60,668 bases of DNA, taken from Actinomycetota bacterium (lineage in GTDB: Bacteria; Actinomycetota; Acidimicrobiia; Acidimicrobiales; SZUA-35). The stretch spans positions 1-60,668 of the forward strand of contig JBCCGJ010000001.1 of NCBI GenBank assembly GCA_039029335.1. Reading direction: 5' to 3'. A program made the translations under genes and the position numbers. Shown one piece after another: positions 1-52,355 of this stretch. The stretch's first letter is position 1; the number at the start of each line of letters is the position of its first letter. The notes under the pieces are model-generated. The model ran no database searches and was not told where the DNA came from. It saw only the letters and a program-made list of their open reading frames with translations.

Positions 1-838
1 CGAGCGGTTCGATGTCGTGCGGGAAGTAGCTGCCGTCCGCACACTGCAGCGGCGGATGATCACCGGGAACCTCCGGCGAACCGGACCAGATCCGATACCC
101 GCCCGCTCCCTCTGCGGTGCCGTCGAAGCCGCCGTTCACAAACGCCCCGGGATAGGGGTGGGTCACCGCCCGCACCAGCCGGTCGACCTCTACCACCGAC
201 ATCTCGGGACGGATCTCCCCGTCCTCCGGGCGGCGGCCCGGCCATTCGGTCGCCTGTGAGTCGTCCTGGGTCATGAGCTCGATCGAGTCGTCCACCAGGG
301 ATGACCAGGTGGCCCGGATCAACGCCTTGTGGGCCAGACCGACCGCGTCGTACAGCTCTGTTGCGGTGGTGGTCGGTGTGAGCGGAATGCGCTCCTGGCC
401 GAGGATCGGCCCGGTGTCGACGCCCTCGTCCAGCTTGAACATGGTCACGCCGGTCTCCGGGAGACCCTTGAGGATGGCCCACGGCACCGCTGCCCGTCCC
501 CGACCGACCGGCAGCAGGGTCGGGTGGATCCCGATGCAGCCCCGTTTCGGTGCAGCCAGCGTGTTGGGCCGGGCGATCTGGGACCACCCGATGATAAAGA
601 GCCAGTCCAGGTCGTGTTTCGCGACGGCCTCGACAACCGCGTCATCGGATACGTGCCGGGATTTGAGCAGCGGAACGTCGTGCTGCTTGGCGAAGTCGTC
701 CAGGTAGATCCGACCGGACTTCGACTTCGCCTGCTCGTCGGTCAGTGTGATCAGCAGGTCGAGTGAGCCACCGATTTCGTAGATCTCCTCGATGCAGTCC
801 ATGCCAAGCTGGACGCAGGTGACAAAGCCGAACTTCAT
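1..838 (-). CDS. Formyltransferase-family protein (Fmt/ArnA-N-like, probable sugar N-formyltransferase); the 3' end runs off the window
   Basis: Absent from the supplied ORF track because the frame stays open to position 1. Hand translation from the ATG at 838-836 gives MKFGFVTCVQLGMDCIEEIYEIGGSLDLLITL...LFIIGWSQIARP...GIHPTLLPVGRGRAAVPWAIL...MFKLDEGVDTGPIL. These are the IIGxxxI, HP(S/T)LLP and DxGxDTG motifs of the formyl_trans_N fold. It lies 20 nt downstream of the sugar-transferase gene on the same strand. Confidence 0.75.
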   Translation of the reverse strand, partial: MKFGFVTCVQLGMDCIEEIYEIGGSLDLLITLTDEQAKSKSGRIYLDDFAKQHDVPLLKSRHVSDDAVVEAVAKHDLDWLFIIGWSQIARPNTLAAPKRGCIGIHPTLLPVGRGRAAVPWAILKGLPETGVTMFKLDEGVDTGPILGQERIPLTPTTTATELYDAVGLAHKALIRATWSSLVDDSIELMTQDDSQATEWPGRRPEDGEIRPEMSVVEVDRLVRAVTHPYPGAFVNGGFDGTAEGAGGYRIWSGSPEVPGDHPPLQCADGSYFPHDIEPL

Positions 839-858
839 GCCGGGTACCGACCGCTGCA

Positions 859-1410
859 CTAGTACTGCGGTGGCGGGCTGAGGAGGTACCGCCCGGTCTT
901 GAAGATCAGTCCGAGGTCATACAGCGGGTTGTTCTGTGCGGCGTACTCGCCGTCGTGGGCCGCCTTCTCCTCCGGGCTCATGCCGTCGTAGGAGCGGAGC
1001 TGGGCAAGGCCGGTCAGCCCCGGCTTCAGCGCCGCGGCACCGTTGGCCTCACGCATGTCCAGCAGTCCGGTCTGGGACGGCAGTGCGGGACGGGGCCCGA
1101 CGATGGACATGTCGCCGCGGAGGATGCACAGCAGCTGGGGGAGTTCGTCAACGTTGGTGCGACGGATGATCGGTCCCATTCTGGTCAGTTTGACCTCTGC
1201 GGCATCGGCACTTTCGACGTCGGGGGTGCTGACCGGCATCGAACGCAGCTTCAGGATTTCGAACGGCTCGCCATCCTTGCCGACCCGTTGCTGGCGGAAG
1301 ATCGGGCTGTGGCGATCCTCCAGCCACACAAGCAGCATCGCAAGCAGAAGGATCGGGGAGGTCACCAGAAGCCCGGTTCCGGAGACCGCGATGTCGGTCA
1401 GGCGCTTCAT
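859..1410 (-). CDS. Small monotopic phosphoglycosyl transferase (Bac_transf / PglC-WbaP C-terminal type); initiating undecaprenyl-phosphate sugar-phosphate transferase
   Basis: 183 aa. N-terminal re-entrant helix (LLVTSPILLLAMLLVWLED), then SPIFRQQRVGKDGEPFEILKLRSM, DELPQLLCILRGDMSIVGPRP and GLTGLAQL. This is the classic bacterial sugar-transferase signature. Its ATG (1410-1408) overlaps the upstream TGA (1409-1407) as ATGA. Confidence 0.85.
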   Translation of the reverse strand: MKRLTDIAVSGTGLLVTSPILLLAMLLVWLEDRHSPIFRQQRVGKDGEPFEILKLRSMPVSTPDVESADAAEVKLTRMGPIIRRTNVDELPQLLCILRGDMSIVGPRPALPSQTGLLDMREANGAAALKPGLTGLAQLRSYDGMSPEEKAAHDGEYAAQNNPLYDLGLIFKTGRYLLSPPPQY

Positions 1411-2114
1411 CGGGGCGACACCCGGTTCCGGGAGAACGCAACCTCAAACGCCTCGGCGTAGTAGAGGTGGGACTCCGCCCCTCGCAGCGTGGCCTGGGCC
1501 CGAATGGCCTCCTCGCTGCGGGGATGGGGGTAGGGCCGCATGACACCTCGGTAGGCCCGGACCGCCTGGAGCTTGGCCTCCAGACCCTCCTCGCCGAGTT
1601 CCACAAAACACTCCGGCACAAAGGTGGGGCCGAGCTGACGGTAGGACCAGTCCGTTGCCGACAGGGTCTCCATCAGCAGCACCTGGCTGACGTACGACGC
1701 ATCGCTGTCGCGCTGGGGGAGCCGGGCCGCGGCCAGGGCGGCGTGAGCGGTGTGCTGATGATCGATGTTCAGATCACTTGGGTGGTGGGTGATGATGACG
1801 TCCGGCCTGAGGTCCCGTACCGCAGACTCCACGAACTGGACCATCTCCAGATGGGGCACGGTGTTGAATTTGATGTTGGGGAACGTCCCGGAGTAGATGC
1901 GCTCAACACCGAGGTGCTTGAGCGCAACGATCGTGTCCTCTTCGAGTTCGTTGTCCTGCGGTCGACGGGTCCTGGCAGCGGCGTTGGCCGACAGTATGCA
2001 GCAGCCAACCTCGTAGCCGGCCTCTGCGGCCTGCCACAGCGTGCCGCCACAGCCCAACGACTCGTCGTCAGGGTGTGCGACAACTGCAAGGACCGGTCCT
2101 TTAATCGGAAACAC
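1407..2114 (-). CDS. PIG-L / LmbE-family N-acetyl-sugar deacetylase
   Basis: 235 aa. VLAVVAHPDDESLGCGGTL zinc-site motif, followed by HHPSDLNIDHQHT. GTG start at 2114 is preceded by GGGAGGGG (RBS) on the minus strand. Confidence 0.85.
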   Translation of the reverse strand: MFPIKGPVLAVVAHPDDESLGCGGTLWQAAEAGYEVGCCILSANAAARTRRPQDNELEEDTIVALKHLGVERIYSGTFPNIKFNTVPHLEMVQFVESAVRDLRPDVIITHHPSDLNIDHQHTAHAALAAARLPQRDSDASYVSQVLLMETLSATDWSYRQLGPTFVPECFVELGEEGLEAKLQAVRAYRGVMRPYPHPRSEEAIRAQATLRGAESHLYYAEAFEVAFSRNRVSPR

Positions 2115-2182
2115 TGGTCAACCCCTCCCGCCGTACTTTGGGGTGTTTGGGCGCATATTTGGCACTTTAGCGGTTCTTCTCA

Positions 2183-2214
2183 GCTCGGGGCGTAGGCACT
2201 TATCTGCCCCGAGC
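2183..2214 (-). terminator. 9-bp-stem hairpin (GCTCGGGGC-N14-GCCCCGAGC) downstream of the PKS gene; possible attenuator or terminator
   Basis: Perfect inverted repeat with no U-tract on either strand. Function uncertain. Confidence 0.3.
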
Positions 2215-2260
2215 ATCGACACAAAACCCCCTTGACCAAAGGGATTTGTGAGTTATCGAT

Positions 2261-2281
2261 CCAAATTTGGACCAAATTTGG
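2261..2281. promoter_or_regulatory. Two adjacent copies of the 10-bp perfect palindrome CCAAATTTGG
   Basis: Copies at 2261-2270 and 2272-2281, in the 211-nt gap between the PKS stop (2326) and the PIG-L start (2114). They are strikingly AT-rich for this genome. Confidence 0.35.
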
Positions 2282-2325
2282 CCCCCGCTCACAGGCCGAA
2301 CGACCCGTCGGCGTTTTGGCCGCGG

Positions 2326-5300
2326 CTACTCGTCGATGTTGTTGTTCAGTTCCGCGGCGATGGCCGGCAGATCCATCTCGACGAACCGGCCTTGGAAGTG
2401 GCCGCCGACCCGGCGGATCACCGACTGGCCCGTGTGGAACCGGCTGAAGCCGAGGGTGGGATCGTCGATCGCCCCCTCCGGCTGAATGGTGGCCGGTAGG
2501 TACACCACATCGACGTCCAGCGTTCGTGGTGCGTAGTTCCAGAACGCATTGTCGTTGATGCGGCCGATTCGATTCAGGGTGGTCCGTCTGCCGGTGGAGA
2601 CCGGCTCGGCCAGCCGCATGAGCGTGGTGTAGGCCTTGGCTCTGACACCGCGGACGATGGCGTTCGCTTTGGCCTTGGTGTCGACGTCGGCGATCTCGCC
2701 GCCCTCGTCGTCCAGGCGGGCCAGGCTCAGCTGGTCCCGGGTCATCCGGGCGATCCAGCTGGGTTTGGCGTCCGGCCGGTACTCCGGATACTCCCGGCTG
2801 AAGGCCTGGATCATAAACACGTTCGAGACTTCTTCGCCCTGGTCGAGCAGCTTGGCCGCCATCTCCCAGGCGATGGTGCCGCCCATGCAGAACCCGCCGA
2901 GGTGATAGGGGCCCTCCGGCTGATGCTCCCGCACCTCTGCCAGGTACAGGTCCGCCATGTCCTCGATGGTGGTCAGCGGGTCGGCGACACCGTCGATGCC
3001 CTGGGACTGGAACCCGACAACGTCGATGTCCTTGCGGAGATGGCGGGCCAGCCGCTCGTACGACAGGACCGTGCCGCCGTGGGCGTGGACCAGGTAGACC
3101 GGTGGACCGTCGGCCGGTCGGACCCGGACTTTGATCTTCGGTTTGGTGGACGGGACAACGATCTTGCGGGCCGACCCGTTGGTCGCCGCACCGGTGCCGT
3201 TGGAGGCGCTTCCGTTCGTCGAGCCGTTGGCGGCAGCGGTGGCTGCGGAACCGCCGGCTCCGCCTGCTGCAGGTGCCTCGTCCTCCGTCACGCCGACACC
3301 GTGGGCCTCGAGCAGCGCGGCCAGGTCGCCGAGCGTCGGGTACTCCAGCACCGTCTCGACCGGGAGCTCGATCCCGAACTGGCGATCGATCTGGGTGAAC
3401 ATCTTCACCGCCATCAGCGACGTGCCACCGAGGTCCGGGAACTGGTCCGTCGAGGCGATCTCATCGTGGCCCAGCAGTTGGTTCCAGATGGCCGCGACCT
3501 TGCGCTCGGTCGGGGTGAGCCCTTCACCGGAGACGGCATCGGCCGAGTCCTGGTGGGGTGTCGAGCGGGCACCGACCGGCGCTTTGCGGGCCAGGCCGAG
3601 GTGTTCAAGGGGAATAGGGGAGACGATGACCGCCGGAAGATCCGACCCCAGGAATCGGTCGAGCGCCTCGATGGCCGGGGCCGGCTCGACGCCGCTGACC
3701 GCGGCCTTGGCCTGACCGTCGGCGCTGAGCTGGTTTGTCATGCCGGTCCCGGTCCACGCCGGATAGGCGATGGCCCGCACCCGGCCGTGGTCCCTGGCCA
3801 ACGCCTGCTGGAACGCGGTCGCCGAGGAGTAGTCCACCTGGCCGGCTTCGGGGTGGGTGGCGGCGATCGAGGAGAACAGGACCAGCTCGGCGTCGTGGTG
3901 CTCGGCCGCGGTGAGGAGCTGTAGCGAGCCTTCGATCTTGGGGTACAGCACCGGGCGGGCGCTGTCCGGATCCTTCTGGGCCAGCAGTGCATTGTCCAGC
4001 ACACCACCCAGGTGGATGATCGTGTCCAGGCCGCCCATCTCCGACGCCGCACCGGCAAGCGCAGCGTCGACGTCGGCCTGGTCGCCGAACCGCAACTCTG
4101 CGGTGTGAGCTCGGCCGTCGTCGGCAAGCTCAGCAAGAGCTTGCTGGTGCTCGTCGCCGACCGGACGGGAGCTGGTCAACGTGACCGAGTCCCCCCGGGT
4201 GATGAAGTGCCGGGCGAGCTCGAGACCGATGCCGCCGAACCCACCGACGATGGCGATCTTCTTCGGCCTGATCGATGCGACGTCCTCCGGGGGCAGGGTG
4301 GTCCGCAGATACTGCGGGGTCCAGCGATGGTTGTTGGCCAGGACGTGGACGTCCCCGTCGGCGGCAAGCGCTCCGGTGAACAGCTCGGCTGTGGCGCCGG
4401 GGCCGACGTCGATCAGTCGGGCCGAGATGGTCTCCATCTCGGCGTTGATCACCCGGACCGGACCGAGGGCCAACGCCCCGGTGGCGGTGGCTCCGCCGTC
4501 CCGGTCGGCACCGGGGTCCTGGAGCGGGTCGATCAGGTTGTTGGTGACAACAACAACGTCGATGGTTTCGGCGTAGTCGAAGGCGGTCAGCGCCCGGCCG
4601 ATGGCCAGCAGCTCAACGGTCTGGTCCGTCGGATCGTCGGCTGCCCAGTGATACACGATCCGACCGGGCAGGCCGCCGCCGGACTCCATATTCGAGAGCA
4701 GTTCCTTGAACCCATCCGCCGTCCAGCGGCCGACAGGGGCGGTTGCCCCGGTCACCGGGCCGAGCGCATCGACCCAGCCGGTCACCGCGTCAGACCCGTT
4801 GCCGACGGCCAACGTTGCCGTCCCGCCCGGGGCTGCGGCGCCGAACGCCGGGGCGAAACTCTCGACGTGGATCCAGTCGCTCGGCGAGGGGGAGCGGAGG
4901 TCCAACCCGGACAGGCCGCCGCCGGTGGCGGCCTGGCGATTCGCCGCCTTGAACCAGTGGGCTTTGCCTCCGAACGGATAGCCGGGGAGGGACCGAAGCA
5001 GCGTGCCGCCCGCCCCGTCCCCAGCGGAAACGCCGCCGCTGATGGCGGGCAGACCCAGCACACCGAGCCAGGTCCGGGTGGAGACGGCGTGGATCAGGTC
5101 GTCGACCTGACCGGTCCGGGGCGGGAGGGTGGAGCGGACCTGATGGTGACCGCTCCGCTTGGGGTGAGCGGTGACCAGGCCGGTCAGCGTTGCCGCCGGT
5201 CCCAGTTCGAGGAACGCTCGGGTCGCAGAGCCAGCCGGGGCGGCGTCCAGGAGGGTGGCCAGCCCGTCGGAGAACCGCACCGCTGAGCGGACCTGGTCCG

Positions 5301-7665
5301 CCCAGTAGCGGGGGTTGTTGCGATCGTCGTCGCTGTACCAGGTACCGCTGATGTTGGAGATGATCGGGATCTTCGGTGCGGCCATGGTGATACCGGCCGC
5401 CGCCTCGGCAACCTTCTCCGCCGCCGGTTCCATCGACGCGGTGTGGAAGGCGTGGGAGGTCCGCAGCGCCCGGTAGGCGATGTCCCGCTGGTCAAGATCG
5501 GCGGTGAGCCGTTCGATGGCCTGGTCCGGTCCGGCCAGGACAAGCGAGGTCTTCCCGTTCTGCACCGCCAGCTCAACCCCATTGCCGAGCAGCGGTTTGA
5601 TGGTTTCCTCGTCCGCTTCGACGGCAACCATCGAGCCCGGCTCGCAGTCGAACATGGACTGGGCCCGGACCGAGACCAGCCGGATCGTGTGCTCCAGACT
5701 CATCACCTCGGCCACCGCCGCGGCGGTCAGCTCGCCGATGGAGTGGCCGAGCATCGCCACCGGGGTCACACCTTCGGCGAGCCACCACTGGGCCAGGGCG
5801 TACTCGATGGTGAACAGCGTCGGCTGGGTCAGCCACGTCTCGGCCAGCCGGGCCTGGGCCGCCTTGACCGTGTCCTCGTCCGGCTCGGCGGCCGGGTCCG
5901 CATAGCCGGGCCACATCTCGGCCCGGATGTCGGTGTCGAGGTGGGAGCGGAACAGCTCGGCGCAGCGGTCCACCGCGTCCCGGAACACGTCGGAGGTCCG
6001 ATAGAGCCCGAGGCCCATCCCGGCCCGCTGTGAACCCTGCCCGGTGAACAGGAACACCGCCTCCGCCGGTTTCTCGGCTGAAGCCGCTGGGGCGCCGGTC
6101 AGCTCGGCGACCAGCGGGCTGCCCTTCGTGCGGAGCGCGTCGATCAGCCCGGCCCGGTCCGCGCCGTGGACCATGCGCTTCTCCTGCTGCGGCGCCCGGG
6201 TGTCCAGCGAGTGCGCCACATCGAGCAACGACACGTCCGGGTTGTCCGTCAGGTACTCGGCCAGTTCGGCCGAAAGGTCGTCGATGGCACCCTTTGTCCG
6301 GCCGGTCAGCACCAGCGCAGGAACGACGTTCTCCGACGCCGGGCTGGGCGCGGCGGTCGGCTGGCCTTCCTCAACGATGATGTGGGCGTTCGTGCCGCCC
6401 ATACCGAGCGAGGTGATGCCCGCTCGGCGAGGTCGTTCGCCCCGAGGCCACGGCGTGTTGATCGCGGCAGGGACAAACGGAGTGGAGGCAAAGTCGATCT
6501 GGGGGTTCGGTTTCTCGAAGTGGAGGGTCTTCGGCAGGACCTCGTTCTCCAGGCTGAGCACCACCTTGATCAGCGACGCCATACCGGCTGCGGCGTCCAG
6601 GTGGCCCACGTTGCTCTTCACCGATCCGATCTTGGCGAACCCGGTCTTGTCGGTATCGGCCTGATAGGCCTGGGTCAGCGCGGCAACCTCGATGGGGTCA
6701 CCCAGGTAGGTGCCGGTGCCGTGGGCCTCCACGTAGTCGATGCTGTCGGCGGTGACGTCGGCTGCGCCCATGGCCTCGGTGATGGCCGCGGCCTGCATGC
6801 TGACGCTGGGGGCCGTGAAGTCCGACTTCTCGTTGCCGTCGTTGTTGACCGCCGAGCCGCGGATGATGGCCCGGATGTTGTCCCCGTCGGCCTCGGCCTT
6901 CACCGCCTGCTTCAGGATGACCCCGCCGACCCCGCTGCCGAAGATGGTGCCGGTGGCATCGGCGTCGAACGCCCGGCAGCGGCCGTCCCTGGTGAAGACA
7001 CTGGCCTCCTCGTACAGGTGACCGGTCTTCAACGGCGCCCGGACTGCGGCGGCGGCCACGAGTGTCATGTCCGACTCGCCCGAGAGCAGGCTCTGGATGG
7101 CGTAGTGGATGGCCACCAGCGAGGTTGAGCAGGCAGTCTGGATGGTCAGCGCCGGTCCCTGCAGCCCCAGCTTGTAGGAGAGCCGGGTGGCCAGAAAGTC
7201 CTTGTCCGAGCCCAGCAGCGTGGGCAGGTAGTCCCGGTAGAACTCCCCGGACAGACCGGTGTCAAGGAAGTAGGTGTTCATCGCCGTCCCGGCGAACACC
7301 CCGATGCGACCGTCGAACGTTGCCGGGTCGTAGCCGGCGTTCTCCAGGGCGAGCCAGCCGGTCTCCAGGAGCTGCCGCTGCTGAGGGTCGATACTCTTCG
7401 CCTCTTTCGGGGAGTAGCCGAAGAACTCGGCGTCGAACCGGTCGGCGTCGTCCAGCACCGGAGCGGCGGGGACGAAGTTCGGGTCGTCGAGGAGTTCCGG
7501 GTCAACACCGGACTCCTGCAGTTCCTCCCTGGTGAACCAGGTGACCCCGTCGGTGCCGTCAACCAGGTTCCGCCAGTACTCGTCAAGGTTCTTGGCCTTG
7601 GGGAACCTGCCTGCCATCCCGATGATGGCGATGTCGAAGTCGGAGTACTGACTCTCGGATTCCAT
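2326..7665 (-). CDS. Single-module type I polyketide synthase, KS-AT-KR-CP-TE
   Basis: 1779 aa.
- KS: TACSTS, Cys179 codon at 7129-7131; EAHGTGT; NVGHLD.
- AT: GQGSQ; GHSIGE with Ser642 at 5740-5742; HAFH, the malonyl-type motif.
- KR: structural half plus IVGGFGGIGLELARHF, K1243, FSSIAAT..DYSSAT, and VLDNAL resembling the B-type LDD motif.
- Carrier domain: FPDLGGTSLMAV, Ser1416 at 3418-3420.
- Linker: Gly/Ala/Asn/Ser-rich.
- Thioesterase: YHLGGFCMGG, Cys1593 at 2887-2889; VGGHF.
- No DH or ER domain is seen.
- Start: ATG preceded by an AGGAAA RBS. Confidence 0.95.
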   Translation of the reverse strand: MESESQYSDFDIAIIGMAGRFPKAKNLDEYWRNLVDGTDGVTWFTREELQESGVDPELLDDPNFVPAAPVLDDADRFDAEFFGYSPKEAKSIDPQQRQLLETGWLALENAGYDPATFDGRIGVFAGTAMNTYFLDTGLSGEFYRDYLPTLLGSDKDFLATRLSYKLGLQGPALTIQTACSTSLVAIHYAIQSLLSGESDMTLVAAAAVRAPLKTGHLYEEASVFTRDGRCRAFDADATGTIFGSGVGGVILKQAVKAEADGDNIRAIIRGSAVNNDGNEKSDFTAPSVSMQAAAITEAMGAADVTADSIDYVEAHGTGTYLGDPIEVAALTQAYQADTDKTGFAKIGSVKSNVGHLDAAAGMASLIKVVLSLENEVLPKTLHFEKPNPQIDFASTPFVPAAINTPWPRGERPRRAGITSLGMGGTNAHIIVEEGQPTAAPSPASENVVPALVLTGRTKGAIDDLSAELAEYLTDNPDVSLLDVAHSLDTRAPQQEKRMVHGADRAGLIDALRTKGSPLVAELTGAPAASAEKPAEAVFLFTGQGSQRAGMGLGLYRTSDVFRDAVDRCAELFRSHLDTDIRAEMWPGYADPAAEPDEDTVKAAQARLAETWLTQPTLFTIEYALAQWWLAEGVTPVAMLGHSIGELTAAAVAEVMSLEHTIRLVSVRAQSMFDCEPGSMVAVEADEETIKPLLGNGVELAVQNGKTSLVLAGPDQAIERLTADLDQRDIAYRALRTSHAFHTASMEPAAEKVAEAAAGITMAAPKIPIISNISGTWYSDDDRNNPRYWADQVRSAVRFSDGLATLLDAAPAGSATRAFLELGPAATLTGLVTAHPKRSGHHQVRSTLPPRTGQVDDLIHAVSTRTWLGVLGLPAISGGVSAGDGAGGTLLRSLPGYPFGGKAHWFKAANRQAATGGGLSGLDLRSPSPSDWIHVESFAPAFGAAAPGGTATLAVGNGSDAVTGWVDALGPVTGATAPVGRWTADGFKELLSNMESGGGLPGRIVYHWAADDPTDQTVELLAIGRALTAFDYAETIDVVVVTNNLIDPLQDPGADRDGGATATGALALGPVRVINAEMETISARLIDVGPGATAELFTGALAADGDVHVLANNHRWTPQYLRTTLPPEDVASIRPKKIAIVGGFGGIGLELARHFITRGDSVTLTSSRPVGDEHQQALAELADDGRAHTAELRFGDQADVDAALAGAASEMGGLDTIIHLGGVLDNALLAQKDPDSARPVLYPKIEGSLQLLTAAEHHDAELVLFSSIAATHPEAGQVDYSSATAFQQALARDHGRVRAIAYPAWTGTGMTNQLSADGQAKAAVSGVEPAPAIEALDRFLGSDLPAVIVSPIPLEHLGLARKAPVGARSTPHQDSADAVSGEGLTPTERKVAAIWNQLLGHDEIASTDQFPDLGGTSLMAVKMFTQIDRQFGIELPVETVLEYPTLGDLAALLEAHGVGVTEDEAPAAGGAGGSAATAAANGSTNGSASNGTGAATNGSARKIVVPSTKPKIKVRVRPADGPPVYLVHAHGGTVLSYERLARHLRKDIDVVGFQSQGIDGVADPLTTIEDMADLYLAEVREHQPEGPYHLGGFCMGGTIAWEMAAKLLDQGEEVSNVFMIQAFSREYPEYRPDAKPSWIARMTRDQLSLARLDDEGGEIADVDTKAKANAIVRGVRAKAYTTLMRLAEPVSTGRRTTLNRIGRINDNAFWNYAPRTLDVDVVYLPATIQPEGAIDDPTLGFSRFHTGQSVIRRVGGHFQGRFVEMDLPAIAAELNNNIDE

Positions 7666-7739
7666 GTCGTTTCCTGGCTGTTCTGTGAACGGTGTTTTTG
7701 GTGAGCCCGCAGCGGGTGCGGGCGGTGTCGGCCGAGCCG

Positions 7740-11435: not shown

Positions 11436-11659
11436 GATGCCCTCCATGGTTGGAGCCGAGATCAAACGTCTGCCCGACCTGACCGTTCTTGTCAGGACTT
11501 ACGCCTCGTGCCCCGTATTCTATTGACGAGCTTCTCGTGTCCACCGGAGCCGGCGTGTCGCCGAGGGCCGTGGTGAGAGGTTCGACAGGTTGAGACTGCG
11601 TCGACCTTCGGCCGTTACCCGATTCTCTCGGTGGTCCCGCCCCGCAAAGTCGATAGTCA

Positions 11660-14814: not shown

Positions 14815-15493
14815 CGTCGGCCTTCACCAGGCCGACCCACGCTGCAGGGAGCGACGGATCGTGATCGCCGCCTGCACCGATCCGATCGAGCCGGACCGCC
14901 GCACCGTCGAACGTGAACGCGTTGGTCAGTCCCGGCCACCACAGCCGCAGGTTCTTCAGGTCTGCTCGCATACCCTCCCCGGTCCATTTGATCCACGCCT
15001 CCTTGAACACCCAGCACTGCAGGATGTCGTCGAGGTCGTCCCCGGCCAGCTGTTCGAGCTCCCGGGGATGGAGCGCCGGGGTGAGCGACGATGCCGTGAG
15101 GCCGTCGTGGATCTCGTGGCACTCGATGTCGACACCGACCGGGCCGGTGCGGTCCACGGCCAACACCATGAGCGGTCCGGAGGCCGACAGGTTGAAGTGC
15201 ACGGTGGGGCCGGGCTCGGCCCCGACATTGTTGTCGTCCGATTCCGCTGTGGTCGCAAGAATCGGTTTGAGGTTGCCGGCCGTTGTCAGCGCAACGGCCG
15301 CCGGGTCGATTCCCAACTCCTCGCCGAGGCGGCGGCGCAGCGCCGACTGTCGGCGGAGGTAGGAGTCCGCCGTAGCTGCATCGACAAAGCGGGCGTGCCT
15401 CGCCCGATCCTCGTCCGGCAGGAGGGAGCGGTCCGGCTCACAGGCTGCAAGCGGCAGCACATCGACCACCGTGTCCCCGTGATGGATCCGCAC
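14777..15493 (-). CDS. Sfp-type 4'-phosphopantetheinyl transferase
   Basis: GVDIE and WVFKEAWIKWTGEG (W/FxxKEAxxK) motifs. The longest ORF reaches 15577. However, the GTG at 15493-15491 overlaps the upstream gene's TAG (15495-15493) as TAGTG, so I prefer it as the coupled start. The 3' end overlaps the convergent gene by 38 nt. Confidence 0.85.
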   Translation of the reverse strand: MRIHHGDTVVDVLPLAACEPDRSLLPDEDRARHARFVDAATADSYLRRQSALRRRLGEELGIDPAAVALTTAGNLKPILATTAESDDNNVGAEPGPTVHFNLSASGPLMVLAVDRTGPVGVDIECHEIHDGLTASSLTPALHPRELEQLAGDDLDDILQCWVFKEAWIKWTGEGMRADLKNLRLWWPGLTNAFTFDGAAVRLDRIGAGGDHDPSLPAAWVGLVKADVTAVGGPLDRGI

Positions 15494-16629: not shown

Positions 16630-16848
16630 GACACTCCGTAAACGGGTTGTGAACGTAAAAACCCCCCGAAAAGCGGGGTTCGGCCGGTGGGAATCGGGGC
16701 GTGGTTCGCGCTTGCATGGACTGTAGGTCACGGCTGCAACCATCGGCTGCGACCACACCGATCCTCCGGCTCATCCAAGCGCCGACGCCGACCGGTTCAA
16801 ACTGGTCAAAATCCCGCCTGGGAAGCGGGGTAATGCCGCCGAACCTTC

Positions 16849-28701: not shown

Positions 28702-28711
28702 GCCGCCGCCG

Positions 28712-30103
28712 ATGACCACCGACCCCACGATCGACACAGCAACAAGCGAACCGGCAACCGCCCGGAGTGTCCCCGCGGCAGCAGACGGTTCGCGTCCCCG
28801 TGTCCTGCTGGCCCACCGGTTCTACTACCCGGATGTGACCACCTACTCCCAGATGCTGCGAATCATCGGCGAGCATCTGGACCGGGACGGCTTCGACGTC
28901 ACGGTGTTCTCCACCCAACCCGGGTACAACGGGGTCTACGACGGTCCTCCGCTGCCGAAGCGGGCGACCGAAGCCGGGCTGACCGTCCACCGGGCCGGAA
29001 TCCCCGGAGCGGGGTCCAGTCTTGGCCGGCTCCTCGGCGGGTTCGTGTACGGCCTGCTGCTCATCGCTCACTGCGTCAGGCGGCGCGGCACGTACGACGC
29101 CATCTCCGTGTCCACCGTCCCGCCGGTGCTCATGGGGCTGTGCGGGACGATCGCAGCAAGGCTCTCCGGGGCGAAGCTCGTCTACCACTGCATGGACCTG
29201 TATCCGGAAATCGCCGTCGCCTCCGGCCTCTCCACCGAGGGGTTCCTCACCTCGGTGGCCCGCCGGTTGGACATGATCACGGTTCGTTCGGCCACAACGG
29301 TCATCGTCCTCTCCGACGACATGGCGGCCACCCTGGCCGCTCGAGGCCATCACAACCGCAACGTCGAGATCCTCAACAACTTCACGATCGAGGAGGTGGG
29401 CCAGGCGGCGCCGCTGCCCGACGAGTTCGCCCGGGGCGACAAAGACCGCTTCCGGGTGCTGTTCGCCGGCAACCTCGGCCGGTTCCAGGGGCTCGACACG
29501 GTCATGACGGGCTTCCTGGCCGCCCGAGAAGCCGACGAGAGCCTTGAGCTCTGTTTTATGGGTGCCGGCGCCATGGAGTCAGAGCTGCGGTCGATGGCCG
29601 GTGACGAGGTGGGCAGGTCCGTACAGTTCTGGCCCCACAGCCCGCTCCCGATCGCCATGGACGCCATCGCCGACGCCGACCTTGCGCTGGTCTCGCTGGT
29701 GCCCGGCCTTGTCCAGTCCGCATTCCCGTCCAAGACGCTCATGTACCTCGAGATGGGGACCAGGATCATGGCCGTGGTCGAGGCGGACAGCGCGCTGGCC
29801 CGCCTCGTCGAGGACGAGAAGGTCGGGACGGTTGCCCCGGTGGGTGATCACGAGGCCCTTGCCGCCGAACTGGTGGCCGAGGCCGCTCAGGCCACCGCAC
29901 GGCGCCAGGACGGCGACCTCGGCGACGCCGACCGTAATCGGGCAACCGAGGCTGCGGCCCGGCTGTTCGGTCAGCCGGTTGTGCTCCCGAAGTGGACCAC
30001 GCTGTATGCGGACCTGCTCGGTGTTTCGCATCCGGCGGGAAAGACCGCCGCCGATACCGCAGCCAGGCCGCCGATCAACGCCCCGGAAGTAGTGGAACAA
30101 TGA
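28712..30103 (+). CDS. GT4-family glycosyltransferase (WcaI/WbuB-like)
   Basis: ATG at 28712, 10 nt after the giant gene's stop. RVLLAHRFYYPDVTTYSQML (Glyco_trans_4-like N-terminal half), FRVLFAGNLGRFQGLD, and FPSKTLMYLEMGTRIMAVVE (GT1/4 C-terminal motif). Confidence 0.85.
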   Translation: MTTDPTIDTATSEPATARSVPAAADGSRPRVLLAHRFYYPDVTTYSQMLRIIGEHLDRDGFDVTVFSTQPGYNGVYDGPPLPKRATEAGLTVHRAGIPGAGSSLGRLLGGFVYGLLLIAHCVRRRGTYDAISVSTVPPVLMGLCGTIAARLSGAKLVYHCMDLYPEIAVASGLSTEGFLTSVARRLDMITVRSATTVIVLSDDMAATLAARGHHNRNVEILNNFTIEEVGQAAPLPDEFARGDKDRFRVLFAGNLGRFQGLDTVMTGFLAAREADESLELCFMGAGAMESELRSMAGDEVGRSVQFWPHSPLPIAMDAIADADLALVSLVPGLVQSAFPSKTLMYLEMGTRIMAVVEADSALARLVEDEKVGTVAPVGDHEALAAELVAEAAQATARRQDGDLGDADRNRATEAAARLFGQPVVLPKWTTLYADLLGVSHPAGKTAADTAARPPINAPEVVEQ

Positions 30104-30201
30104 GGGTTCGCGCGGTCAGGTTTCGACCTTAAAGTCCTACCGTTGATACCGATATGACACTGGATCGGTGCTCCACTTCCGCAACCACCTGGAGGGACGG
30201 A

Positions 30202-30636
30202 ATGAGAATTTGGAAACTGGTACCTGTGGTGCTGAGCTGTCTGCTCCTCGTGACCGCCTGCAGTGACTCCGACGACGAGGGTGACGCCGTCGGCAAGGCC
30301 TCCGAGGAGGTTGCCGACGGTGACGGTGTTGTAGCCGAGAGCCTGAACGAGACCACCGCCGTCCCCCGTCCGGAACAGTCCGTCCCGGATCTCGCGGGCC
30401 GTACCGAGGAGAACATCACGATCGGTGGCTGGGTGTTCGAGTCGAACGGCACGTTCCTCCTGTGTGAGGCCGCCGGCGAGGGCGATCCGCCGACCTGCGA
30501 AGGAGAAACGATGGAGATCTCCAACGGGGAGGTCATCGATGAGACGATCTTCCTCGGCGAAGCGGGCTCCCGATACTCCGACGCCCAGGTGGTTGTCACC
30601 GGAGACGTCGTCGACGGCGTGTTGACCATCGGCTGA
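30202..30636 (+). CDS. Small lipoprotein of unknown function
   Basis: ATG at 30202 after GGAGGGA. MRIWKLVPVVLSCLLLVTAC carries a lipobox (VTAC). This is followed by an acidic linker and a roughly 90-aa Cys-containing domain. Confidence 0.7.
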   Translation: MRIWKLVPVVLSCLLLVTACSDSDDEGDAVGKASEEVADGDGVVAESLNETTAVPRPEQSVPDLAGRTEENITIGGWVFESNGTFLLCEAAGEGDPPTCEGETMEISNGEVIDETIFLGEAGSRYSDAQVVVTGDVVDGVLTIG

Positions 30637-30645
30637 GTTCTGTCC

Positions 30646-32151
30646 ATGGCGGTCATAGACATACCGACGACGTTCTCCGCACCGGTCACCCGGTCGCGGG
30701 GCAACCTCCTCGACGGTCTTGTCTCCGTCATCCCGTTCGCCGCGCTTGTCCTGGCTCTTGTCGGCGGCGCCCTCTACCTCATCGGTGATGAGAAGGCACT
30801 CTTCCTGGTTGTGGGTGGGTTGCCCCTTGCGGCCGCATCGATCCCGTTGCTGTGGCGGCGGCATCGTGAGCTGGGGATGTGGACCTTCGCCATCATCTCG
30901 GTTGGCATCGGCTACACGCTGACCTTGTTCTACGTCTACGCCGGAAATCCCAGCGAGGAACTGATCGACAGCTTTTTCCTCCTCGGCGAGGAGCCGGAGT
31001 ACTTCCTCTACCCGGCGCTGCTGGTCAGCGTCGGGTTGACGATGATGGCGCTGTCCTACGTGGGGGTCACCGGCAAGCGGCAGAGCGTGGCCGTGAACCT
31101 GGGAGAGTTGCAGGTAAGCCGCCGACGCCTCTACGGCGTCACCAGCTTCTTTGCCATGATGAGTTTCCTCAGTCTGATCCTGTTCATTCAGGGAACCGGC
31201 GGATTCGACTTCTCCAGCCTCTCGACAAAGCGAACCTCGATCAACACCATCGACGTCGGCAACGATTCCTCCCTTCGGACCCTCGGCGAGGTTCGTTACC
31301 TCTCCAGCCTCGGGGTGGTGGGGTACCTGTTCCTCCTGGCCGCGCTGCTGTCGAAGGGGAGAAAGCTCCGCAGGGGCGAGATCGCGCTGGTGTCGGTGTT
31401 TCTCCTGGTCAACCTGTTGCTGCCCTTCTACTCCAGCAGCCGGAGTGACACCATCGTGCCCATCCTGGCCACCGTGGTCATGCTCGCCCGGTACGAGCGC
31501 AAGCTGAACTGGCGGGTTGTCCTGGTCCCGGCGCTTGCGCTGCTGCTGATCTTCAACACCATGACCGACCTCCGATCGGACGACTCGTTGGATCCGGGCT
31601 CGGTGCTCGGCGTCTCGGTTGTCACCGAGTTCTCGGACAACATCGCCCTCAACCGCAATTTCGCCGACTTCAGCAAGGCGTCACATCTGATCCAGCGGGT
31701 GCCGGAGGACCTGGACTTCCGCTACGGGTCGACCATCGCGGCGTTTGTGGTTGCCCCGATCCCTCGTTCGTTGTGGCCCTCAAAGCCGCTGATCAGCGCC
31801 GGTCCGATCATCGGTCAGCAGATCTACAAACAGCGTCGGGCCTTCGGGCTGTCCGCCAGCGGCATCCCTCCGGGCTTCTTCGGTGAGATGTACTGGAACT
31901 TCGGCACCGCCGGCATCCTGCTCGGTTCACCGCTGCTCGGCGCGGCCCTCGGTCTTGGCAACCGGTGGTCGAAGACCAGACAGGACATCCGGGCCCAGGT
32001 GTTCTACGGCGCCGGTCTGTTCTCAACGATTTCCGGGTTCCTGGCGGTCGGCGTCGGTTTTGCGCTGTTGGAGTTGGCCACGACGTTTGTTGGTGTACAG
32101 GCGATCTACTACCTGCTTGGCAGACCGAAAATCGCCAGAGGACCGCGATGA
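30646..32151 (+). CDS. Polytopic membrane protein; oligosaccharide repeat-unit polymerase (Wzy-like), or possibly a related ligase/oligosaccharyltransferase
   Basis: 501 aa with at least 10 hydrophobic helices. Contains a large loop and IPPGFFGEMYWNFGTAGILLG, which resembles Wzy/EpsG-type polymerases. Its position in a Wzx-containing glycan cluster supports the call. The family assignment was made by eye only. Confidence 0.6.
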   Translation: MAVIDIPTTFSAPVTRSRGNLLDGLVSVIPFAALVLALVGGALYLIGDEKALFLVVGGLPLAAASIPLLWRRHRELGMWTFAIISVGIGYTLTLFYVYAGNPSEELIDSFFLLGEEPEYFLYPALLVSVGLTMMALSYVGVTGKRQSVAVNLGELQVSRRRLYGVTSFFAMMSFLSLILFIQGTGGFDFSSLSTKRTSINTIDVGNDSSLRTLGEVRYLSSLGVVGYLFLLAALLSKGRKLRRGEIALVSVFLLVNLLLPFYSSSRSDTIVPILATVVMLARYERKLNWRVVLVPALALLLIFNTMTDLRSDDSLDPGSVLGVSVVTEFSDNIALNRNFADFSKASHLIQRVPEDLDFRYGSTIAAFVVAPIPRSLWPSKPLISAGPIIGQQIYKQRRAFGLSASGIPPGFFGEMYWNFGTAGILLGSPLLGAALGLGNRWSKTRQDIRAQVFYGAGLFSTISGFLAVGVGFALLELATTFVGVQAIYYLLGRPKIARGPR

Positions 32152-32196
32152 GGCGGCGCCCGGCGATGGACCAGAAGAAGAAGGCGGAGGGCACGA

Positions 32197-33108
32197 ATGC
32201 CGAACAGTGAACCGTTGACGTACAACGATGCGATCTCCCGAGGTGAGGTGCAACCGATCATCCTGTTCGGGGCACCGCGCTCCGGCACCCAGATGTATCG
32301 GGACATGATCTGCAGCCACCCCGATGTGGCCACGTGGCCGTACAACGAGATGACCTACATGTGGCGGTACGGCAACCGGAACCACCCCACGGATGAGATC
32401 CCGGTCGAGAAGCTGACCCGGAAGAGCGCCCGATACATCCGCAACTCCTTCATCAAGCTGTCGGAGAAGACCGGCAGCCCGATGGTGCTGGACAAGACCT
32501 GCCACAACTGTCTCCGCCCGGAGTACGTCCAGGCGGTGCTGCCGGAGGCGAAGTACATCTACCTGGTCCGTCACGCAATGGACGTTGTGCCGTCGACGAT
32601 CAAGCGGTCGGAGCATCCACCGCCGGCTCAGGAGTTCACCCGGATCAAGTCGATGCCGCTGGCCGACGTGGGGTACTACGTGGCCAGGGCGGCGTGGAAC
32701 CACGGCGGGCTGCTCCGCCCGGGGAACAGCCAGGCCAGGATCTGGGGGCCGCGCTTCACCGGAATGGAGGAGCTGGCGGCCACCCGGCCGATGCCGGAGG
32801 TCTACGCTTATCAGTGGCTCCGCCACATCGAGCTGACGGACCGGTTCCTCAACGACCCGGCATTCGACGCCCCGCTCCTTCGGGTCCGGTACGAGGAGAT
32901 CACCAAGCACCCCCGGGAGGCGTTCGAGGAGGTCTACGGATTCCTCGGGATCTCGGTTCCTGAGGCGGTGGTCGAGGAGTGGATCGGCAAGGTCAACTAC
33001 CGTGAGCCGGGCTCCGGCGCCGGATCGCTCGGCGAGCACGAGGCCGCAGTGGAGGCCATCGTCGCCGAGAAGAACGGCGAACACGGGTACCAGTCGACGT
33101 CCGCCTAG
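32197..33108 (+). CDS. PAPS-dependent sulfotransferase
   Basis: 5'-PSB loop FGAPRSGTQ (about 32275-32289) and 3'-PB motif YLVRHAMDVVPS (RxxxDxxxS). ATG follows a GGAGGG RBS with a 6-nt spacer. Confidence 0.8.
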   Translation: MPNSEPLTYNDAISRGEVQPIILFGAPRSGTQMYRDMICSHPDVATWPYNEMTYMWRYGNRNHPTDEIPVEKLTRKSARYIRNSFIKLSEKTGSPMVLDKTCHNCLRPEYVQAVLPEAKYIYLVRHAMDVVPSTIKRSEHPPPAQEFTRIKSMPLADVGYYVARAAWNHGGLLRPGNSQARIWGPRFTGMEELAATRPMPEVYAYQWLRHIELTDRFLNDPAFDAPLLRVRYEEITKHPREAFEEVYGFLGISVPEAVVEEWIGKVNYREPGSGAGSLGEHEAAVEAIVAEKNGEHGYQSTSA

Positions 33109-52350: not shown

Positions 52351-52355
52351 CGGGG

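Follow-up and report, generated by a model that had tools for sequence, protein, structure and literature searches.

The window analysed here is one entire 60.7-kb contig from an Acidimicrobiales MAG of an uncultured bacterium. It carries a glycan island with a one-module polyketide synthase (PKS) and its loader, and the genes, overlaps and terminator named in a preliminary description of this DNA were all recovered by profile matches and direct reading of the sequence. Family matches of these genes are significant. Glycan genes lie on either side of the PKS, and a Wzx gene diverges from the loader.

The left end of the island is on the minus strand. An ArnA-type sugar N-formyltransferase (2..838; Formyl_trans_N 84 bits, 1.3e-23) has lost its C-terminal end at the contig end; it has an 83% identical orthologue in L166 and best matches to the ArnA N-terminal domain (PDB 2.8e-24; NF005998 5e-38). 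In relatives an SDR gene follows the formyltransferase, and the island is predicted to continue for this one gene past the contig start. Because the enzyme is ArnA-like, it is no less likely to N-formylate transiently than to serve as the alternative acyl donor suggested previously. Next to it are a small PglC-like polyprenyl-phosphate phosphoglycosyl transferase (PGT, 859..1410, minus; Bac_transf 163 bits, 6e-48), for which a 100% identical database protein exists, and a PIG-L/LmbE-family (CE14) de-N-acetylase (1407..2114, minus; PF02585 77 bits, 3e-21). The ATG of the PGT overlaps the PIG-L stop codon as ATGA at 1407-1410. The closest solved structures to the PIG-L protein are TT1542, diacetylchitobiose deacetylase and BshB, and its best NCBIfam match is BshB1, at 3.9e-16 and under the curated cut-off. 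Neither an aminotransferase nor a 4,6-dehydratase was found in the gene content of the window, which counts against the pathway proposed below.

Between PIG-L and the PKS are 211 nt (2115..2325, minus), the PIG-L-side half of which is conserved with L166. This region may harbour an internal promoter or regulatory site. It contains a twin palindrome, two copies of CCAAATTTGG at 2261-2281, that is specific to this window.

The PKS (2326..7665, minus) was assigned as a type I KS-AT-KR-ACP-TE module from Pfam domains and motifs. The KS has TACST/HGTGT/GHL, the AT has the malonyl-specific GHSIG/HAFH, and the ACP has GGTSL. The KR keeps its K, S and Y residues, and Thr replaces the conserved Asn of YxxxN; the loss of this Asn counts against an amide-decoration pathway. 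In the thioesterase (TE) the nucleophile is Cys rather than Ser (GFCMGG), with Gln at triad position I and DD after beta7, the acid being at position II. The Pks13 TE, which acylates trehalose and so counts as a precedent, is among its PDB matches, and by PDB comparison the TE is not CurM-like. As the window holds no other acyltransferase and no condensation domain, the TE is the only offloading candidate. Its Cys, Gln at position I and triad acid after beta7 are shared with the TEs of ObiF and SulM. The Cys-TEs characterised with this layout make small products, beta-lactones or beta-lactams, and no amides (PMC11298585); this also counts against amide decoration.

Upstream, the loader (7740..11435, minus) is a DH-FkbM-FkbH-ACP starter module, recognised by PS-DH, TIGR01444 (74 bits), TIGR01686 (291 bits vs a cut-off of 147) and PP-binding. 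Its ATG start at 11435 is supported by the 100% identical database protein P0001. The N-terminal DH carries the HxxxGxxxxP, YGP and DxxxH motifs with the catalytic motifs intact, and the catalytic motifs of the loader are invariant in alignment A1. The DH and FkbM methyltransferase domains are additions to the earlier account, which had an FkbH-type loader only. The FkbH domain is predicted to form glyceryl-S-ACP from a phosphoglycerate. Since there are no FkbI or FkbK genes within the window, the glyceryl unit would not be turned into methoxymalonyl-ACP.

A divergent promoter region (11436..11659, from coordinates and sequence reading), with the same layout in L001 and L002, separates the loader from the Wzx-type MOP flippase (11660..13006, plus; Polysacc_synt_3 1.7e-16). 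The flippase stop overlaps the start of the next gene as GTGA (13003-13006), a coupling kept in L001. That gene encodes a type I membrane-anchored FG-GAP beta-propeller protein (13003..14814, plus; FG-GAP_2 2e-38), with a signal peptide, C-terminal TM segment and Arg-rich tail that are kept in L001 and L002. Its sequence is paralogous to the N-terminal part of the giant adhesin-like protein described below.

Next come an Sfp-type 4'-phosphopantetheinyl transferase (PPTase, 14777..15493, minus; ACPS 1.3e-9 and AASDHPPT_N), which would be available for activating the two carrier domains, and the glycosyltransferase GT4a (15493..16629, minus; Glycos_transf_1 2e-16). The GTG start of the PPTase overlaps the GT4a stop as TAGTG at 15493, as had been noted, with the addition that both genes are on the minus strand; this coupling is kept in L001 and L002. 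The GT4a ORF is open to 16758, and its start is likely the Met at 16629, its homologues having 379-399 aa. Plus-strand ORFs at 14861-15907 and 15904-16488 have no family matches and were rejected as antisense shadows of GT4a and the PPTase.

The right arm of the island is on the plus strand. It begins with a giant, predicted secreted protein of 3950 aa (16849..28701; Calx-beta 1065 bits in 30 stretches; FG-GAP_2 3e-37), composed of a signal peptide, an N-terminal FG-GAP propeller and 30 Calx-beta domains, with no recognisable anchor at its C-terminus. It is kept in L001, L002, L006, L168 and L169. After a gap of 10 nt (28702-28711) follows the WcaI-like GT4b (28712..30103; Glyco_trans_4_4, Glyco_trans_1_4; NF007640 1e-28), 72-78% identical to its orthologues in L168 and L169. 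A small conserved lipoprotein (30202..30636; ORF open from 30154) has the lipobox LVTAC|S and no Pfam match; its orthologues in L168 and L169 have a LAAC lipobox. The Wzy-type repeat-unit polymerase (30646..32151) exceeds the cut-offs of TIGR04370 (54 bits vs 40) and PF14296 (27.7 bits vs 26.6) and has orthologues with 77-86% identity. Last is a PAPS-type sulfotransferase (32197..33108; Sulfotransfer_3 3e-18, Sulfotransfer_1 8e-10), with orthologues in L168 and L169. Its PDB matches are weak, to tyrosylprotein sulfotransferase 2 (TPST2, 3.6e-6) and the CurM/OLS PKS sulfotransferase domains (8e-5 to 3e-4); that these closest solved enzymes are protein- and polyketide-sulfating counts against glycan sulfation. 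The arm is closed by a hairpin terminator (33128..33147, plus) with an 8-bp stem of which 6 pairs are G-C, followed directly by the T-rich tail ATTTGAGTTG.

At least six related contigs keep the loader, PKS, PPTase, GT4a, GT4b, Wzx, Wzy, sulfotransferase, lipoprotein, FG-GAP protein and giant protein together. The order PKS, PIG-L, PGT, formyltransferase, SDR is common to L166, L167 and a contig from sample ERR4592245, and the order giant protein, GT4b, lipoprotein, Wzy, sulfotransferase is common to L168 and L169. The same housekeeping genes bound the island in relatives. The aa identity to these in-clade relatives is high (70-90%), which limits the weight of synteny taken by itself. Other island variants have a CE4 deacetylase in place of PIG-L (CE14), and a non-orthologous SDR-PGT fusion (33-35% identity) at the opposite island end in place of the PGT and SDR; such variants also carry DegT, a GNAT-like gene and, adjoining a polysaccharide deacetylase, a second sulfotransferase. 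A deacetylase is thus present in every variant through non-orthologous enzymes. The swapped versions of the PGT, SDR and deacetylase indicate that the functions have been retained and the genes have not.

Loaders also adjoin glycan genes in unrelated lineages. In L007 (Granulosicoccaceae) a PGT gene is divergent from a loader, KS-AT-KR-ACP-Condensation, TauD, DegT and PglF-like dehydratase; the terminal domain of this gammaproteobacterial PKS is the amide-forming condensation domain, and it adjoins the DegT and PglF amino-sugar genes. A soil lineage has GT2, methyltransferase, DegT, PGT, PglF and GT4 genes and then directly a loader, and L019 has GFO, PGT, DegT, Wza, Wzc, PPTase and loader. 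Of roughly 160 distant loader homologues, about 80% belong to ordinary NRPS/PKS clusters that include FkbI/FkbK, AMP-ligase and NRPS genes and in which no glycan gene could be recognised within 10 kb; this counts against the pathway proposed below. Conservation with cassette swapping, together with recurrence in unrelated lineages, indicates that the link between the PKS and the glycan genes is not accidental. This bears out the earlier view that the PKS and loader are embedded in a Wzx/Wzy-type glycan island, with which they evolve together.

The best explanation, on which belief and doubt are about evenly balanced, is that the genes of the island form a single pathway which, by way of Wzx and Wzy, leads to a sulfated heteropolysaccharide of the cell surface that bears acyl groups, together with two co-encoded propeller/Calx-beta surface proteins. 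The PKS product would most likely be a C5 acyl group from glycerate and malonate, attached to an amino sugar of the polymer after its deacetylation. Glyceryl-ACP could be dehydrated and/or O-methylated, making 2-methoxyacryloyl or O-methylglyceroyl a plausible starter, and one malonate extension would give a C5 3-hydroxy acyl-ACP if the Asn-less KR works, or otherwise a 3-oxo product. In parallel, the PGT would transfer an N-acyl or N-formyl amino-sugar phosphate, prepared by the ArnA-like formyltransferase and neighbouring SDR, to undecaprenyl phosphate. PIG-L would remove the N-acetyl or N-formyl group and the Cys-TE would pass the polyketide acyl to the freed amine, directly or via a beta-lactone. 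That a deacetylase exposes an amine for a PKS-made acyl group had been proposed before, and it is the reading best backed comparatively, by the deacetylase in every variant and the condensation-ended gammaproteobacterial module. GT4a and GT4b would finish a roughly trisaccharide unit, sulfated by the sulfotransferase, flipped by Wzx and polymerised by Wzy. The polymer could share the surface with the FG-GAP/Calx-beta proteins or be carried by them; no ligase or oligosaccharyltransferase that would join the glycan to them was found, and Wzy matches polymerase models.

It is unlikely, though worth weighing, that the PKS and loader only happen to adjoin the glycan genes and yield a free small molecule exported by other means. 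With a beta-hydroxyacyl-ACP and the ObiF/SulM-like TE layout, that molecule could be a small beta-lactone, or else a hydroxy acid or lactone resembling 2-deoxypentonate. This reading is favoured by the TE layout, by the natural-product-type NRPS/PKS clusters that house most of the distant loader homologues, and by the 211-nt gap, which may split transcription units. Against it, every variant has glycan genes to the left and right of the PKS, translation of the PPTase is coupled to that of GT4a, the housekeeping boundaries are constant, the island has no dedicated exporter apart from Wzx, and glycan-embedded loaders occur independently, one with a terminal condensation domain beside DegT and PglF. 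GT4 and PIG-L enzymes recur together in the synthesis of bacillithiol, mycothiol and GPI; BshA glycosylates malate, and deacetylation occurs in the BshB, MshB and PIG-L pathways. It is accordingly conceivable, if quite improbable, that the polyketide hydroxy acid is an aglycone or primer to which a GT4 adds GlcNAc, with deacetylation by PIG-L and formylation of the amine, giving a glycoside or glycolipid-like product, possibly MOP-exported. The BshB-like matches of PIG-L and the coupling of GT4a to the PPTase fit this, as does Collimonas carenaemin, where an NRPS/PKS core is linked to Wzy-pathway genes (PMC8313283). A simple glycoside would not need the conserved polyprenyl-phosphate PGT and Wzy polymerase, however, a C5 acid is no lipid anchor, and CE4 replaces PIG-L in other variants.

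There is a slim chance that the glycan is unsulfated and that the sulfotransferase acts on the polyketide beta-hydroxyl, ACP-bound or released as in CurM/OLS-type ST-TE systems, or on tyrosines of the giant and FG-GAP proteins. Its closest solved structures point this way, and sponge-symbiont swf clusters likewise combine a sulfotransferase domain with a PKS that is mono-modular (PMC3908369). Yet those structure matches are mainly over the PAPS-binding motifs, the TE is of another type than CurM, the gene ends the GT4b-lipoprotein-Wzy operon, away from the PKS, and the second sulfotransferase of variant islands is beside a polysaccharide deacetylase. Very improbable is an iterative, WcbR/RkpA-like module building a longer polyhydroxy chain that would end the polysaccharide or anchor it in the manner of a lipid. 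PKSs encoded by wcbR and rkpA are known in capsule clusters (PMC3908369), and a KR-only module could iterate to a 1,3-polyol, but the dedicated starter module and TE form a non-iterative loader-plus-module layout and the gammaproteobacterial analogue, ending in a condensation domain, adjoins amino-sugar genes. WcbR and RkpA are accompanied by an ABC-transporter (Kps-type) route, genes for which were not found in the island, whereas Wzx and Wzy are present here.

The impression of novelty given by the preliminary description was overstated in light of these capsule PKSs and two further precedents. In Flavobacterium psychrophilum, wfpC-G are predicted to supply ACP/KS/KR-made hydroxyacyl groups for O-antigen amino sugars (PMC6519341). 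Campylobacter jejuni has the FkbH gene cj1302 in its flagellin-glycan locus and pseudaminic acid with di-O-methylglyceric acid (PMC7099621, PMC3958885). The island is most likely a variation on a decoration strategy predicted earlier for some O-antigens.

The island at the left end of the contig is real, conserved and coherent, and each gene in the order claimed by the preliminary description was confirmed by family scans. Its minus-strand arm comprises an ArnA-like formyltransferase gene truncated by the contig end (2-838), a 183 aa phosphoglycosyl transferase (PGT; 859-1410), a PIG-L deacetylase (1407-2114), the KS-AT-KR-ACP-TE PKS (2326-7665) and the DH-FkbM-FkbH-ACP loader (7740-11435). 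Diverging from the loader is wzx (11660-13006, plus strand), which has a GTGA overlap with the gene for the 603 aa FG-GAP protein (13003-14814, plus strand). The genes for an Sfp-type PPTase (14777-15493) and the glycosyltransferase GT4a (15493-16629) are on the minus strand and share a TAGTG overlap. The plus strand then carries the gene for the 3950 aa giant protein (16849-28701), which has an FG-GAP propeller at its N-terminus followed by 30 Calx-beta domains and, beginning 10 nt past it, GT4b (28712-30103), a lipoprotein gene with the lipobox LVTAC, wzy (30646-32151) and a sulfotransferase gene (32197-33108). The terminator previously placed near 33128 was found as an 8 bp hairpin (33128-33147) that ends the right arm. 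The genes 3' of the island are TetR, a TPP enzyme, an AAA/CobT-VWA pair and further housekeeping genes.

The window comprises the whole of a 60,668 nt contig. The G+C content along the contig is 63-71%, with no compositional break at the island, and scans of the window found no tRNA gene and no Rfam family. The closest relatives of the contig are labelled Acidimicrobiales, the MAG itself being labelled Actinomycetota. Two ORFs outside the island have no Pfam match at E<=0.001: 40099-42597 (minus strand, 832 aa), with a gene-like codon-position G+C, and 50476-52713 (minus strand, 745 aa). Within the island, the plus-strand ORFs 14861-15907 and 15904-16488 were considered as the GT4 and PPTase genes and rejected as antisense shadows; they have no Pfam or NCBIfam match, and the true genes are on the minus strand. 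The FG-GAP and PPTase genes converge with a 38 nt overlap of their 3' ends (14777-14814), which is also present in the related contig L001 and absent from L002. The 211 nt gap between the PKS and PIG-L genes is AT-richer and contains the perfect palindrome CCAAATTTGG twice, side by side (2261-2281); two or more matches occurred in 6 of 100 shuffles. The PIG-L-proximal half of this gap is conserved with L166, while the corresponding gaps of L166 and L167 lack the twin palindrome, which was rejected as an operator.

Related contigs carry parts of the same island. In L001, L002 and L006 the genes are in the order giant, GT4a, PPTase, FG-GAP, Wzx, loader and PKS, L006 stopping within the loader gene. 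Loader identity to the window is 90% for L001, where the gene junctions overlap as in the window, and 79% for L002, where they are tight. The order PKS, PIG-L, PGT, formyltransferase is kept in L166, L167 and a contig from sample ERR4592245, followed by an SDR gene and then by a prolyl-oligopeptidase-like gene, which marks where the island stops on the left. At the other end, L168 (from the same sample as L001) and L169 have the giant, GT4b, lipoprotein, Wzy and sulfotransferase genes in the same order, with the TetR and TPP-enzyme genes of the window on the right flank and, in L168, AAA/CobT as well.

The L001/L168-type island has no PIG-L, small PGT or formyltransferase gene. Beside its PKS are instead a CE4 deacetylase, a second sulfotransferase, a GNAT-like gene and DegT, and past the sulfotransferase is a non-orthologous SDR-PGT fusion with 33-35% identity to the PGT of the window. 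The variants thus swap genes and keep functions, so that one PGT, one SDR and one deacetylase are always present. The PKS, loader, PPTase, both GT4, Wzx, Wzy, sulfotransferase and the two surface proteins are constant. On this comparison of gene content, the pattern is that of one functional glycan locus exchanging cassettes in a serotype-like manner, which two unrelated neighbouring clusters would not be expected to show. An accidental adjacency of PKS and glycan genes, raised at the outset as the case against the proposal, is contradicted by the synteny kept across the related contigs and by its recurrence outside the clade. In L001, a GGDEF diguanylate-cyclase gene (16637-17764) is directly after the PKS and before the CE4, sulfotransferase, GNAT-like and DegT genes, which suggests possible c-di-GMP control of the island in this variant.

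The loader has an FkbH domain (TIGR01686, 291 bits; cut-off 147). In the loader alignment the LDCDNT sequence, which is the HAD-IIIC DxDxT motif of FkbH, and the downstream carrier-domain Ser are invariant, and across seven loader homologues the DH motifs HxxxGxxxxP, YGP and DxxxH and the SAM-binding motif of FkbM are invariant along with them. The PKS has the KS Cys-His-His residues (TACST, HGTGT, GHL), the AT motifs GHSIG and HAFH, the latter indicating malonyl specificity, and the ACP motif GGTSL, all of which are kept in L001 and L002. Its KR has Lys, Ser and Tyr at canonical spacing. In place of the Asn of its YxxxN motif it has Thr in the window (3798-3836, residues 1277-1289), L001 and L002, but every distant homologue examined, including that of the gammaproteobacterial locus L007, has Asn. 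The KR may be impaired or mechanistically altered. An identical-sequence look-up of the PKS protein gave no match. A methoxymalonyl-ACP role for the FkbH/FkbM pair is ruled out because the window has neither FkbI nor FkbK, tblastn with such proteins from distant loci finding nothing in it.

The thioesterase (TE) does not have the canonical Ser-Asp-His triad. Its nucleophile is Cys (GFCMGG), conserved in the relatives, with Gln at triad position I, His present and an acidic pair after the beta7 region; among the TE domains matched in distant loader clusters, 23 of 28 are also of the Cys type. The lack of Asp at position I with an acid after beta7 is the layout of the beta-lactone- and lactam-forming TEs ObiF and SulM, and the GxCxG nucleophile is common to these, AB3403 and the island TE (PMC11298585). 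The best solved match is AB3403 (PDB 4zxh), likewise a Cys-TE and the nearest in overall sequence, yet it retains the position-I Asp; similarity to ObiF or SulM was not detectable at E<0.01. A further likeness to all three is the small beta-substituted acyl thioester substrate predicted for the island TE. A single-sequence AlphaFold model of the TE reached a pLDDT of 42, too poor for triad geometry or a fold search.

The PGT, which would initiate the repeat unit, matches Bac_transf with 163 bits (cut-off 27) and is of PglC-like size. Wzx belongs to the MOP family (Polysacc_synt_3, 60.8 bits; cut-off 23), its NCBIfam MOP flippase match being under the cut-off, and Wzy matches TIGR04370 (54.2 bits; cut-off 40) and PF14296 (27.7 bits; cut-off 26.6). 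Family scans found no ABC-transporter or Kps families in the island, which has Wzx and Wzy instead. Among the island ORFs and ten downstream ORFs there was no PCP/Wzz chain-length regulator and no ligase (LCP, WaaL or O-OTase), and such genes may be elsewhere in the genome. The formyltransferase comes closest to the N-terminal domain of ArnA, and the SDR adjoining its gene in L166 and L167 has generic matches only; ArnB, ArnT and ArnE/F are absent from the window. By family scans and tblastn the window also has no LbH/PglD-like, DegT or PglF homologue, DegT being present in the L001 variant and both DegT and PglF in L007 and the L146 lineage. The only NCBIfam match of the sulfotransferase is NoeE, and it is weak (9e-4). 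Its nearest solved relatives, also at weak E-values, are tyrosylprotein sulfotransferases and the CurM/OLS PKS sulfotransferase domains. The sulfation target could therefore be glycan, polyketide or protein.

Taken together, these genes suggest, as the most likely mechanism, a pathway in which a PKS-made acyl group is placed on a de-N-acylated amino sugar of a sulfated unit that is then assembled by Wzx/Wzy; the chance that it is right as a whole is about even. FkbH domains load and dephosphorylate phosphoglycerates (PMC10099666), and that of the loader would put glycerate on the ACP. The DH and FkbM domains would plausibly turn the glyceryl unit into an enol-ether (2-methoxyacryloyl) or O-methylglyceroyl starter, to which the KS would add one malonate, with possible reduction by the KR, giving a C5 3-hydroxy (or 3-oxo) acyl-ACP. 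These steps are predicted from domain content and motifs. The Cys-TE would have to offload the product, since the window holds no other acyltransferase. On the sugar side, an amino sugar may be N-formylated, moved to the lipid carrier and de-N-acylated by the ArnA-like formyltransferase and SDR, PGT and PIG-L, and the polyketide would then be transferred to the exposed amine, either directly or via a beta-lactone. GT4a and GT4b would lengthen the unit, the sulfotransferase sulfate it, Wzx flip it and Wzy polymerise it. From offloading through polymerisation, the steps are proposed from gene content, conservation and analogy.

Other, less probable uses of the same genes were weighed. The PKS product could be a free metabolite, possibly a beta-lactone; the layout of the TE and the usual surroundings of its distant relatives are compatible with this, and the cassette-exchange pattern argues for a glycan locus instead. 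A glycoside built on the hydroxy acid by GT4 and PIG-L, as in bacillithiol, would draw on enzymes that the window does encode, of which PIG-L is missing from the L001/L168-type island. The polyketide itself could be sulfated, given the CurM/OLS domains among the relatives of the sulfotransferase, with the tyrosylprotein enzymes among those relatives as well. Finally, the PKS could build its chain iteratively as in WcbR/RkpA, also found with surface-polysaccharide genes, but with another domain set. For acylation of the sugar amine, the strongest single argument comes from outside the clade, from the locus L007.

Genome and metagenome scans gave 160 loader homologues that were kept, all with identity of 48% or less. 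The metagenome scan with the clade alignment likewise found only distant homologues (<=48% identity) and no intermediate relatives. Near distant loaders, tblastn by itself missed many glycan genes, and their detection required family scans and home-made HMMs. Most of the kept homologues are in natural-product-type clusters with FkbK, ACP, FkbI, AMP-ligase, PKS, C-A NRPS and PPTase genes. Such clusters, found in Acidobacteriota, Verrucomicrobiota, Ignavibacteriota, Gemmatimonadota and Betaproteobacteria, share with the island the four-domain loader (29-38% identity), a similar KS-AT-KR-ACP module and a PPTase gene close by. Unlike the island, they add the hydroxy/methoxymalonyl-ACP genes (FkbK, ACP, FkbI), AMP-ligase and C-A NRPS, and they are usually without glycan genes. 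In this widespread and apparently uncharacterised cluster type (among L003-L165; for example L010, L017, L021 and L035) the C-A NRPS has a Cys-type TE, and GTDB species genomes contain at least 479 relatives. In Nostoc (L011, L015, L018, L022, L025, L028, L033 and L047), FkbM-FkbH-ACP without DH is fused into a PKS of approximately 2900 aa that adjoins a Rieske oxygenase-like protein and an APS kinase, which hints at a sulfated product.

Several loader homologues are embedded in amino-sugar glycan loci, and a Bac_transf gene is in the flanks of 7 of the approximately 160 distant loci. In L007 (Granulosicoccaceae, Gammaproteobacteria), GT2, UDP-sugar dehydrogenase, UDP-GlcNAc 2-epimerase and small PGT genes are on one side, and on the divergent side are the loader, KS-AT-KR-ACP-Condensation, TauD, DegT and a PglF-like dehydratase. 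An amide-forming condensation domain here replaces the TE beside 4-amino-sugar genes, which argues that the acyl group ends on the sugar amine. The gene for the TauD/TfdA-family dioxygenase (19471-20259) separates the PKS-condensation gene from DegT, and hydroxylation of the acyl group or of the sugar is a possible role for this enzyme. In a soil lineage (L092, L133, L142, L146 and L162), GT2, methyltransferase, DegT, PGT, PglF and GT4 genes are followed directly by the loader; L019 (Ignavibacteria) has GFO, PGT, DegT, Wza, Wzc, PPTase and loader genes, and L041 (Verrucomicrobiia) has GFO and PGT near the loader.

It is possible, if on balance doubtful, that FkbH-primed type I PKS modules with direct offloading onto amino sugars represent a polyketide-glycan hybrid type of envelope decoration that has gone unrecognised and is scattered over the phylogeny, with offloading by a Cys-thioesterase in Acidimicrobiales and by a terminal condensation domain in the gammaproteobacterium, and that in Acidimicrobiales the decorated sulfated polymer and the giant Calx-beta/FG-GAP pair make a Ca2+-dependent surface matrix. 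The Cys-TE might also make a beta-lactone that acts as the activated acyl donor.

The closest described logic is that of wfpC-G in the Flavobacterium psychrophilum O-polysaccharide locus, where Qui2NAc4N, an amino sugar of the trisaccharide repeat, is predicted to receive a 3,5-dihydroxyhexanoyl group through an ACP, two ketosynthases, a ketoreductase and a PglD-like transferase (PMC6519341). There, as in the island, KS, KR and ACP are inside a Wzx/Wzy locus, but as discrete type II proteins with an acetate starter; in the island they are domains of a fused type I module, which is supplied by a glycerate loader (FkbH/DH/FkbM) and accompanied by a PPTase gene of the island. The PglD-like enzyme acts on a UDP-4-amino sugar made by PglE/PglF, whereas the island has a Cys-TE and no PglD-like enzyme, and its amine is probably exposed by a deacetylase. 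The Campylobacter jejuni flagellin-glycan locus contains an FkbH-domain gene, cj1302, and its pseudaminic acid can bear di-O-methylglyceric acid (PMC7099621, PMC3958885), a methylated glycerate-derived acyl group on an amino sugar, as proposed for the island. We infer that cj1302 makes the glyceroyl group, which neither of these papers states. In this case no KS extension is known, and flagellin carries the sugar, a nonulosonic acid, in O-linkage. WcbR and RkpA are type I PKSs within Burkholderia and rhizobial capsule clusters (PMC3908369) and are thought to produce a lipid moiety; these clusters differ from the island in using an ABC-transporter capsule route and lacking the FkbH loader. For carenaemin of Collimonas, an NRPS/PKS core is linked to Wzy-pathway genes (PMC8313283).

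In relation to the Arn (Ara4N) pathway, the island formyltransferase and the following SDR gene resemble a split ArnA, and a lipid-carrier transferase and a deacetylase-type enzyme are likewise co-operonic. By analogy this suggests that formylation could be a transient step ahead of de-N-acylation on the lipid carrier, although the transferase is a phosphoglycosyl transferase rather than a GT2 and the deacetylase is CE14 rather than CE4. Nod factors are tailored by the NodB deacetylase, the NodA N-acyltransferase, NodE/NodF (KS/ACP) and the NodH/NoeE sulfotransferases, and are free chito-oligosaccharides made by NodC and exported via an ABC transporter. They share with the proposed route the succession of deacetylation, addition of a KS/ACP-made acyl group to the amine and sulfation, but they are not Und-PP-linked Wzx/Wzy polymers, and no NodA homologue is present here.

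No description of an FkbH-polysaccharide or type I PKS-Wzx/Wzy system was found in the open full-text literature, a scope that leaves out most subscription journals. The sense of novelty in the preliminary description is overstated, as the concept has precedents. The system is not categorically new, and its chemistry in the island is still a prediction. What is new is that a fused type I module comes with a DH-FkbM-FkbH loader, that a Cys-TE is the apparent transferase and no PglD-type enzyme is present, and that in this actinobacterial lineage, an uncultured Acidimicrobiales clade, the locus is consistently associated with a giant Calx-beta/FG-GAP protein pair. For the specialist, it is the assembly-line/Cys-TE route and its cross-phylum recurrence that are noteworthy and directly testable.

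Should the PKS prove to be the source of an acyl group on the glycan, assembly-line (type I) polyketide chemistry would be among the means by which cell-surface polysaccharides are tailored, with glycerate as primer, formation of an enol ether or O-methyl group and a rare Cys-thioesterase. Such islands would then be misread by genome-mining tools as orphan PKS clusters that make a diffusible metabolite, and the acyl group would escape glycan-typing tools. It would also provide a testable PKS thioesterase or condensation domain with a sugar amine as nucleophile, useful for glyco-engineering.

Nothing in the island is able to attach a glycan to protein or wall: there is no WaaL, LCP or PCP and no oligosaccharyltransferase of the PglB/AglB or PglL/Wzy_C type, the Wzy-like protein fitting polymerase models and not Wzy_C. 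A possible link of the glycan to the FG-GAP/Calx-beta proteins is suggested by conserved co-location and by the Wzx-FG-GAP translational coupling. The propeller of the FG-GAP protein is a paralogue of the giant's N-terminus; the protein also carries a signal peptide and, at its C-terminal end, a conserved TM segment with an Arg-rich tail, and no solved relative of it was detectable by sequence. After its signal peptide is a tandem GVPAV(N/T)(R/W)S repeat (13099-13243, residues ~33-80) with four N-R-S sequons. These N-x-S repeats (GVPAVNRS) were considered as glycosylation sites and rejected; they are absent from the L001 and L002 orthologues and the repeat is therefore strain-specific. The assemblies of L001, L002, L168 and L169 all stop inside the repetitive giant gene. 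Opposite this gene in the window (17400-28400, minus strand) is a ladder of antisense ORFs of ~110-115 aa at a spacing of ~342 nt, which mirrors the Calx-beta repeat period and does not represent genes.
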